The translations under genes and the position numbers were made by a program. Positions 58,671 to 59,354 of a stretch of 64,000 bases of DNA are shown here, in pieces. This DNA comes from Escherichia coli 042 (GTDB lineage: Bacteria > Pseudomonadota > Gammaproteobacteria > Enterobacterales > Enterobacteriaceae). Position 1 is the stretch's first letter; each line of letters begins with the position of its first letter. The stretch lies in assembly GCF_000027125.1 (NCBI RefSeq), contig NC_017626.1; one strand, 5' to 3'. Under the pieces are notes generated by a model. That model was not told the DNA's origin and did no database searches. It worked only from the letters and a program-made list of their open reading frames with translations.

Positions 58671-59354
58671 ATGAACCTAAAGAAAACACTGTTAAGCGTG
58701 TTAATAATAGTGCCTCTCTGCTTATTGGCAGGGTGTGACTATATTGAAAAAGCGAGTAAGGTCGACGAACTCGTTACACAGCAAGAGTTGCAAAAAAGCA
58801 AAATTGAGGCGCTTGAGAAACAGCAGGAACTCGATAAGCGAAAGATAGAACATTTTGAAAAACAACAAACTACTGTCATAAATAGTACCAAGACGCTCGC
58901 TGGCGTGGTGAAAGCGGTTAAAGACAAGCAGGACGAATTTGTCTTTACAGAATTTAACCCAGCACAAACACAATATTTCATTTTAAATAACGGATCGGTC
59001 GGTTTGGCAGGCCGGGTGCTGGCTATTGATGCGGTTGAAAATGGCAGTGTTATTCGTATTTCGCTGGTTAACCTTTTAAGCGTTCCCGTATCAAATATTG
59101 GCTTTCATGCGACATGGGGCAATGAAAGACCCACCGATGCCAAAGCTCTGGCAAAGTGGCAACAATTACTTTTCAACACCACCATGAATTCCACTCTGCA
59201 ATTAATGCCTGGTCAATGGCAAGACATTAATCTGACATTAAAAGGCGTTTCGCCTAATAACCTGAAGTATCTGAAGTTGTCCATCAATATGGCCAATCTC
59301 CAGTTCGACACTGTTCAACCTGCTGAAACTCGGCAGCGAAAAAACAAAAAATAA
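58671..59354 (+). CDS. Coiled-coil lipoprotein of unknown function, immediately upstream of the adhesin gene
   Basis: 227 aa; signal peptide plus lipobox LLAGC; heptad-like segment QELQKSKIEALEKQQELDKRKIEHFEKQQ; AGGA SD before ATG. Absent from the recalled K-12 yibL-lldP junction. Confidence 0.75.
   Translation: MNLKKTLLSVLIIVPLCLLAGCDYIEKASKVDELVTQQELQKSKIEALEKQQELDKRKIEHFEKQQTTVINSTKTLAGVVKAVKDKQDEFVFTEFNPAQTQYFILNNGSVGLAGRVLAIDAVENGSVIRISLVNLLSVPVSNIGFHATWGNERPTDAKALAKWQQLLFNTTMNSTLQLMPGQWQDINLTLKGVSPNNLKYLKLSINMANLQFDTVQPAETRQRKNKK

Follow-up and report, generated by a model that had tools for sequence, protein, structure and literature searches.

A predicted SadB ortholog encoded directly upstream of a trimeric autotransporter adhesin gene in Escherichia coli

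What is the small lipoprotein gene that precedes the gene of a large trimeric autotransporter adhesin in Escherichia coli, and what might its product do? An earlier note on the stretch of DNA analysed here (64,000 nucleotides in all; hereafter the window) had described the product as an uncharacterised coiled-coil lipoprotein of no known function that could be an accessory factor for the biogenesis or surface display of the adhesin. Judged from its sequence and predicted structure, the open reading frame is nearly certainly the E. coli ortholog of sadB, which encodes an inner-membrane lipoprotein in Salmonella. The label "uncharacterised" was therefore wrong, because the family gained a crystal structure and functional data in 2014 and carries a name of its own in RefSeq. 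The suggestion of an accessory role fared better and is supported, by analogy, by the homology to SadB (54% identity, same genomic slot). We propose that the protein is an inner-membrane SadB ortholog that is co-transcribed with the adhesin gene and aids the display of the adhesin. We consider this account, which is drawn from homology, gene spacing, joint loss of the two genes and conservation, to be likely as a whole. At the family level the finding is already known: in Salmonella, Shigella and Escherichia, Grin et al. 2014 (PMC3953254) described a lipoprotein gene that precedes sadA in the interval from the mtl operon to the lld operon, so that the operon has been noted explicitly for Escherichia. 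The literature searched yielded no experiment on any E. coli sadB allele. The features on which our account rests are collected in Table 1.

Table 1. Features of the lipoprotein–adhesin region, in window coordinates.
Feature	Coordinates	Strand	Basis
GC-rich hairpin, 8-bp stem, after yibL (probable yibL terminator)	58155..58178	+	fold of 58135-58195: -20.9 kcal/mol, z -2.8 vs shuffles
Candidate sigma-70 promoter, TTGACA, 18 nt, TAAAAT	58449..58478	+	11/12 hexamer positions
Predicted sadB ortholog, CDS	58671..59354	+	RefSeq CDS; phmmer vs PDB 4C47; Foldseek of AlphaFold model
Lipoprotein signal peptide (residues 1-21), lipobox LAGC, Cys22, Asp23 at +2	58671..58739	+	direct sequence reading
Predicted coiled-coil stalk, residues 28-92 (nine heptads span 31-93)	58752..58946	+	SadB-identical a positions; AlphaFold helix
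Predicted C-terminal beta-sandwich, residues 93-213, SadB/YajI fold, MATH-like topology	58947..59309	+	SadB identity, DSSP, Foldseek
sadB–adhesin junction, 43 nt	59355..59397	+	length constant in five alleles, sequence identical in three
Trimeric autotransporter adhesin gene, 5' part, positional ortholog of SadA/UpaG/EhaG	59398..64000	+	runs past window end

The identification as SadB is carried by sequence and by structure. A phmmer search of the PDB returned a single strong match, entry 4C47 (E 1.2e-70), in which residues 23–227 of the window protein align without a gap to residues 3–207. This entry, titled "inner membrane lipoprotein", is SadB of Salmonella enterica (STM3690). The two proteins share 53.7% identity overall; the coiled-coil part is less conserved (44%) than the C-terminal domain (60%). 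An AlphaFold model of the monomer, computed from six input sequences and of moderate confidence (mean pLDDT 68.5), shows a single helix over residues 28–90 followed by a beta-rich domain over residues 94–212, which contains one helix at residues 157–168 (DSSP). When this model was compared with the PDB by Foldseek, three 4c47 chains ranked first (E 1.5e-19) and YajI (2jwy) ranked fifth. Thus, the homology and structure searches that the earlier note had proposed as a check both found SadB. The full-length homology to a solved protein, together with dN/dS values of 0.04–0.16 between alleles, rules out a chance open reading frame.

Of the 5426 complete E. coli genomes, 4139 contain a match to the gene, and RefSeq names the product either "DUF3251 domain-containing protein" or, in newer records, "SadB/YajI family lipoprotein". 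Among the matches listed, the 3' neighbor is always annotated as YadA-like, UpaG or EhaG, with one record in which it is merely an ESPR-type signal-peptide protein. RefSeq annotates the same coding sequence in E. coli GN06156, which is 100% identical to the window across positions 58300–59500 despite a difference of about 1% over the wider window. In spite of the DUF3251 product name, an hmmscan of the protein against Pfam-A gave no DUF3251 match; the top Pfam-A match, ETRAMP, was rejected as a chance hit (E 0.22). A scan against NCBIfam gave sub-threshold matches only, of which the sensible one is PRK11530 over the C-terminal domain (E 0.0047; 16.4 bits, where the cut-off is 158). Because the YajI-type profiles of both collections stay below threshold and the relation to YajI is visible at the level of fold only, the protein is, as far as these comparisons go, an ortholog of SadB and no more than a distant paralog of YajI (E. 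coli b0412, PDB 2JWY), with which it shares about 14% identity. Paralogy to YajI was not established from sequence alone: an hhalign comparison with K-12 YajI aligned 21 columns at 5% probability.

The N-terminus of the protein predicts where it resides. The reading frame opens with ATG, encodes 227 residues and closes with TAA at 59352–59354, and its product begins MNLKKTLLSVLIIVPLCLLAGC, a signal peptide of the lipoprotein type. Cleavage would release MNLKKTLLSVLIIVPLCLLAG and leave C as the first mature residue; the lipobox is the canonical L-A-G-C, and the Cys22 codon lies at 58734–58736. The sequence therefore reads LLAG-C22-D23-Y24 across the start of the mature protein, with Asp at position +2. 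In lipoproteins, Asp at +2 is an inner-membrane retention signal. Salmonella SadB likewise starts with C-D-Y; fractionation placed it in the inner membrane, as its Asp at +2 had predicted, and it was shown to be triacylated (PMC3953254). On the basis of the Cys-Asp start and of the SadB experiment, we predict that the window protein is an inner-membrane lipoprotein that faces the periplasm.

The stalk that follows is a predicted coiled coil. The heptad register that places a at residues 31, 38 and so on to 87, and d at residues 34 to 90, is the best among the seven phases; in this register, 11 of the 18 core positions are hydrophobic versus 11 of the 47 non-core positions. The a positions are V31, Q38, I45, Q52, I59, Q66, T73, V80 and Q87, and this string (VQIQIQTVQ) is the same as that of SadB when the two are threaded on one another. 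The corresponding d residues are L, Q, L, D, F, V, L, V and F. In the SadB crystal, which is a homotrimer, the coiled coil is nine heptads long and has Gln at six of its 18 core positions (PMC3953254). The window protein has four core Gln at a and one at d, versus four and two in SadB, one d-position Gln being replaced by Asp55. The four a-position Gln are invariant in Salmonella and in every E. coli allele examined, in a segment that is otherwise 44–50% identical. The C-terminal domains of SadB form three beta-sandwiches whose topology is also found in YajI and in eukaryotic MATH domains (PMC3953254). Hence, every SadB feature that can be checked from sequence is present in the window protein: the homology, the lipobox with Asp at +2, the nine-heptad Gln-rich stalk, the beta-sandwich and the position of the gene. 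The earlier note had read a lipoprotein signal, a heptad-like segment and a beta-rich C-terminal region from the same 227 residues, and all three are borne out, the second by the register and the modelled helix and the third by the modelled strands between residues 94 and 212.

The genomic slot is shared with Salmonella as well. Gene order, taken from GN06156, is selA-yibF-yibH-yibI, mtlA-mtlD-mtlR, yibT, yibL, the lipoprotein gene, a gene for a 1742-residue "YadA-like family protein", and lldP-lldR-lldD. Salmonella sadB occupies the same place between mtl/yibL and lld, with the adhesin gene directly downstream and a gap of 44 bp (PMC3953254) versus 43 nt here. The gap in the window is exactly the 43 bp given in the earlier note, which also had the shared strand right: the next plus-strand ATG begins at 59398. 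The reading frame that begins there stays open for 1534 residues up to the end of the window. Its product has an extended autotransporter signal peptide at the N-terminus, is recognized by NCBIfam models of trimeric autotransporter adhesins (Ata, EmaA, Vomp, BimA and YadA), and is 99% identical to the 1742-residue protein of GN06156. The window adhesin is a different allele from SadA and is 72% identical to UpaG. In E. coli CFT073, the ortholog of the lipoprotein gene is c4423 (C_RS20890), directly upstream of upaG. E. coli K-12 has lost the pair: in MG1655, yibL adjoins lldP directly, and neither the lipoprotein gene nor the adhesin gene is present. The 371-bp yibL-lldP spacer of MG1655 aligns solely to sequence that follows the adhesin stop codon and precedes lldP, which indicates that the lipoprotein and adhesin genes were deleted as one block along with the spacer upstream of them, promoter region included; deletion of both genes together in K-12 has been described before (PMC3953254).

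Are the two genes transcribed together, and from where? A scan of 58000–59700 found no terminator-like or promoter-like site on the plus strand in the junction or close to it, and the junction RNA forms no stable hairpin (z +0.39 versus shuffled sequence). Upstream, the GC-rich hairpin after yibL is probably the yibL terminator, and hence the upstream boundary of the sadB–adhesin unit; the consensus terminator scan did not call this hairpin, whose T-run is weak. The sole promoter-like site on the plus strand between 58000 and 59700 is the TTGACA-18-TAAAAT candidate, and transcription probably starts there. Both of its hexamers lie in a conserved island, ATTTGACAT ... TCATTA(A/G)AAT, within yibL-sadB spacers that can otherwise barely be aligned among five alleles. 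An Rfam scan of 57200–59700 at E <= 1 returned a chance U4 match only, and no known RNA element was found in the long spacer or in the junction. Co-transcription, which the earlier note had raised as a possibility, is consistent with the sequence; it is suggested by the 43-nt gap that lacks a terminator, promoter or hairpin, by the constant length of that gap, by the upstream promoter island and by the joint loss in K-12.

The same upstream region offers a view of how the unit may be regulated. The DNA around the candidate promoter is 30–36% GC, and silencing of this AT-rich region by H-NS is likely. Repression of upaG by H-NS is cited, at second hand, in PMC5012682, and the base composition fits such a report. 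In addition, CFT073 c4423 ranked with the top induced genes, at a log2 fold change of 5.1, on overproduction of the PapB-family regulator TosR, alongside other silenced adhesin operons (PMC5956150). No mention of upaG, which would have allowed a check of co-regulation with c4423, was found in that RNA-seq study.

What would the lipoprotein do for the adhesin? Here the argument passes to Salmonella. When SadB was produced with SadA in E. coli, the surface signal rose 4–6 fold, non-specific aggregation decreased and proteinase K resistance increased; in Salmonella carrying sadA without sadB, surface SadA was reduced and diffuse, and it was found in foci when SadB was present (PMC3953254). A second group again observed better SadA display with SadB in a 2024 study. 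By analogy with these data, we propose the following sequence of events. The window protein would be exported by Sec and then lipidated on Cys22, and Asp at +2 would retain it on the periplasmic side of the inner membrane. There it may form a weak, concentration-dependent homotrimer, as the 54% ungapped identity to the crystallized protein suggests, in which the nine-heptad Gln-rich coiled coil would hold three MATH-like beta-sandwiches off the membrane. Its gene and the adhesin gene 43 nt downstream would be expressed as one transcript from the candidate promoter. The outcome would be more adhesin on the surface and a better folded, protease-resistant state, as for SadA with SadB in Salmonella.

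The final step, how a periplasmic trimer could achieve this, was addressed by the authors of the SadB study, who proposed that a SadB trimer holds three unfolded SadA chains and aids their trimerization or register (PMC3953254). In the window protein, the three C-terminal domains would likewise hold three unfolded adhesin chains transiently in the periplasm, and this might favor trimerization and correct register before or during Bam-dependent export. Such trimer templating is the original authors' hypothesis, and it is weakened by failed binding assays: direct SadB-SadA binding could be demonstrated neither by phage display, which selected only generic peptides of alternating hydrophobic and hydrophilic residues, nor by cross-linking (PMC3953254). 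SadB is also not trimeric in solution (PMC3953254). These results leave room for a less direct kind of help, in which the lipoprotein might work near the Sec exit, as a general periplasmic holdase or by preventing aggregation, or might organize adhesin foci after export. The generic peptides, the failed cross-linking and the dependence of SadA foci on SadB all fit such a role, as does the free recombination of E. coli sadB alleles relative to the passenger region. Nevertheless, the match of a three-fold helper to a three-fold client and the MATH/TRAF-like topology favor, by analogy, avidity or trimerization, and we regard help without templating as unlikely.

A second alternative detaches the lipoprotein from the adhesin altogether. 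It could have an envelope function of its own, as may hold for YajI, and be linked to the adhesin gene only physically. The paralog YajI is not encoded beside any autotransporter gene, the assays for direct contact between SadB and SadA failed, and allele similarity of sadB is uncoupled from that of the passengers (see below). Furthermore, an N-terminally truncated UpaG assembles rapidly in the absence of the lipoprotein in E. coli K-12 AD202. Since this truncated UpaG assembles in AD202, and MG1655 is without the gene, the helper is not strictly required and is dispensable at least for short constructs. Against a role unrelated to the adhesin stand the effects of Salmonella SadB on the surface amount, distribution and protease resistance of SadA in two hosts, the spacing of 43/44 nt that is fixed from E. 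coli to Salmonella, and the loss of both genes together with the upstream region in K-12. Moreover, a 2026 survey of trimeric autotransporter neighborhoods recorded 106 SadB homologs, all of them in Enterobacterales, and this confinement also speaks against an independent role. We thus think an adhesin-independent function very unlikely and retain the account in which the lipoprotein aids display of its neighbor.

The alleles of the lipoprotein within E. coli bear on these alternatives. Five diverged operons were compared: that of the window, a UpaG-linked type, the E302 type, an EhaG-linked type and Oki. The other alleles share the locus, length (226–227 residues), gap length and architecture of the window allele, to which the UpaG-linked allele is 88%, the E302 type 85% and the EhaG-linked allele 66% identical. 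This divergence is distributed unevenly along the protein. For example, the window and EhaG-linked alleles are 50% identical in the coiled coil and 77–80% in the C-terminal domain. The E302 type is 98% identical to the window allele in the C-terminal domain and 70% in the coiled coil. In the UpaG-linked type the pattern is reversed, the coiled coil being the closer half (96%, versus 85% for the C-terminal domain). The E. coli sadB alleles are thus, on these alignments, ancient and mosaic, and their coiled-coil and beta-domain halves have different nearest relatives. We note two small additions, the mosaic alleles and the conservation of the promoter island, neither of which was found in the literature that was examined.

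Coiled-coil identity within E. coli falls to 46–50%, which approaches the distance between E. coli and Salmonella. Divergence this high within one species might be expected of a decaying or hitch-hiking, non-functional remnant under relaxed constraint beside a diversifying adhesin. However, synonymous sites are saturated, and even so dN/dS stays at 0.04–0.16 for each domain in every comparison, which points to purifying selection in every lineage. In addition, every allele examined has an intact reading frame of the same length, and 82 alignment columns do not vary even with Salmonella included. The probability that the gene is a remnant is, in our judgment, close to nil. The protein encoded by the neighboring yibL (57748–58110) is identical in the window and in an EhaG-type strain, and its gene has a synonymous divergence of about 0.3, a noisy value from 120 codons. 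This divergence is high for E. coli and suggests that elevated diversity extends beyond the operon.

Does each lipoprotein allele fit its own adhesin? Across the five operons, identity of the adhesin passenger (residues 61–400) ranges over 54–84%. The membrane anchor of the adhesin, formed by its final 100 residues, shows 100% identity throughout, and the accompanying sadB genes are 66–88% identical to the window allele. There is no co-variation between sadB and the passenger in these five operons, a number too small for statistics, and only the close EhaG/Oki pair agrees throughout. This uncoupling argues against a passenger-specific fit in the sequences compared, although the C-terminal 100 residues of the adhesin are invariant. 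It is conceivable that the allele diversity is itself selected, for instance because stalks are tuned to the length or repeat register of the adhesin or through phage or immune pressure on the operon, and does not simply hitch-hike with the adhesin; we find this unlikely. If the diversity were selected, the part of the adhesin that the helper recognizes would be its invariant C-terminal anchor.

How does the SadB type of helper compare with other systems? According to the 2026 survey, SadB and TpgA are the only known helpers of trimeric autotransporters. TpgA, the helper of AtaA in Acinetobacter sp. Tol 5, resembles SadB in that it is a dedicated protein encoded beside a trimeric autotransporter gene and promotes secretion of the passenger. 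However, its fold is unrelated, consisting of a BamE-like part and an OmpA-like peptidoglycan-binding domain, and it binds the barrel and peptidoglycan; unlike SadB, TpgA is widespread in Gamma- and Betaproteobacteria. A more remote likeness, drawn by the SadB authors, is to the MATH domain of TRAF2, where a trimeric coiled coil carries three beta-sandwiches of the same topology that bind the three tails of a trimeric membrane receptor (PMC3953254). TRAF2 and SadB have no detectable sequence relation, and their domains are oriented differently on the stalk. TRAF was absent from the top Foldseek matches of the window-protein model.

The practical value of the assignment lies in annotation and in the design of expression constructs. 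CFT073 c4423 is still listed as "Uncharacterized protein" in the RNA-seq table of PMC5956150, and RefSeq often retains "DUF3251 domain-containing protein". Adhesins of the UpaG/EhaG type are usually cloned alone for adhesion assays, as vaccine antigens and for surface display. The Salmonella data predict that display would be better and more native if the upstream lipoprotein gene were included. The result opens no new question about the export of trimeric autotransporters as such.

Finally, we note observations on the neighborhood of the gene. In E. coli SL112, the gene of an IS4-like ISVsa5 transposase sits between sadB and ehaG, so that the two genes are naturally separated in that strain. 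Within the window, the stalk-coding part of the adhesin gene is tandemly repeated on the plus strand at approximately 60934–61971, in units of about 207 nt that are 81–89% identical to one another. These repeats account for a series of shadow open reading frames on the minus strand at 60760–62003.
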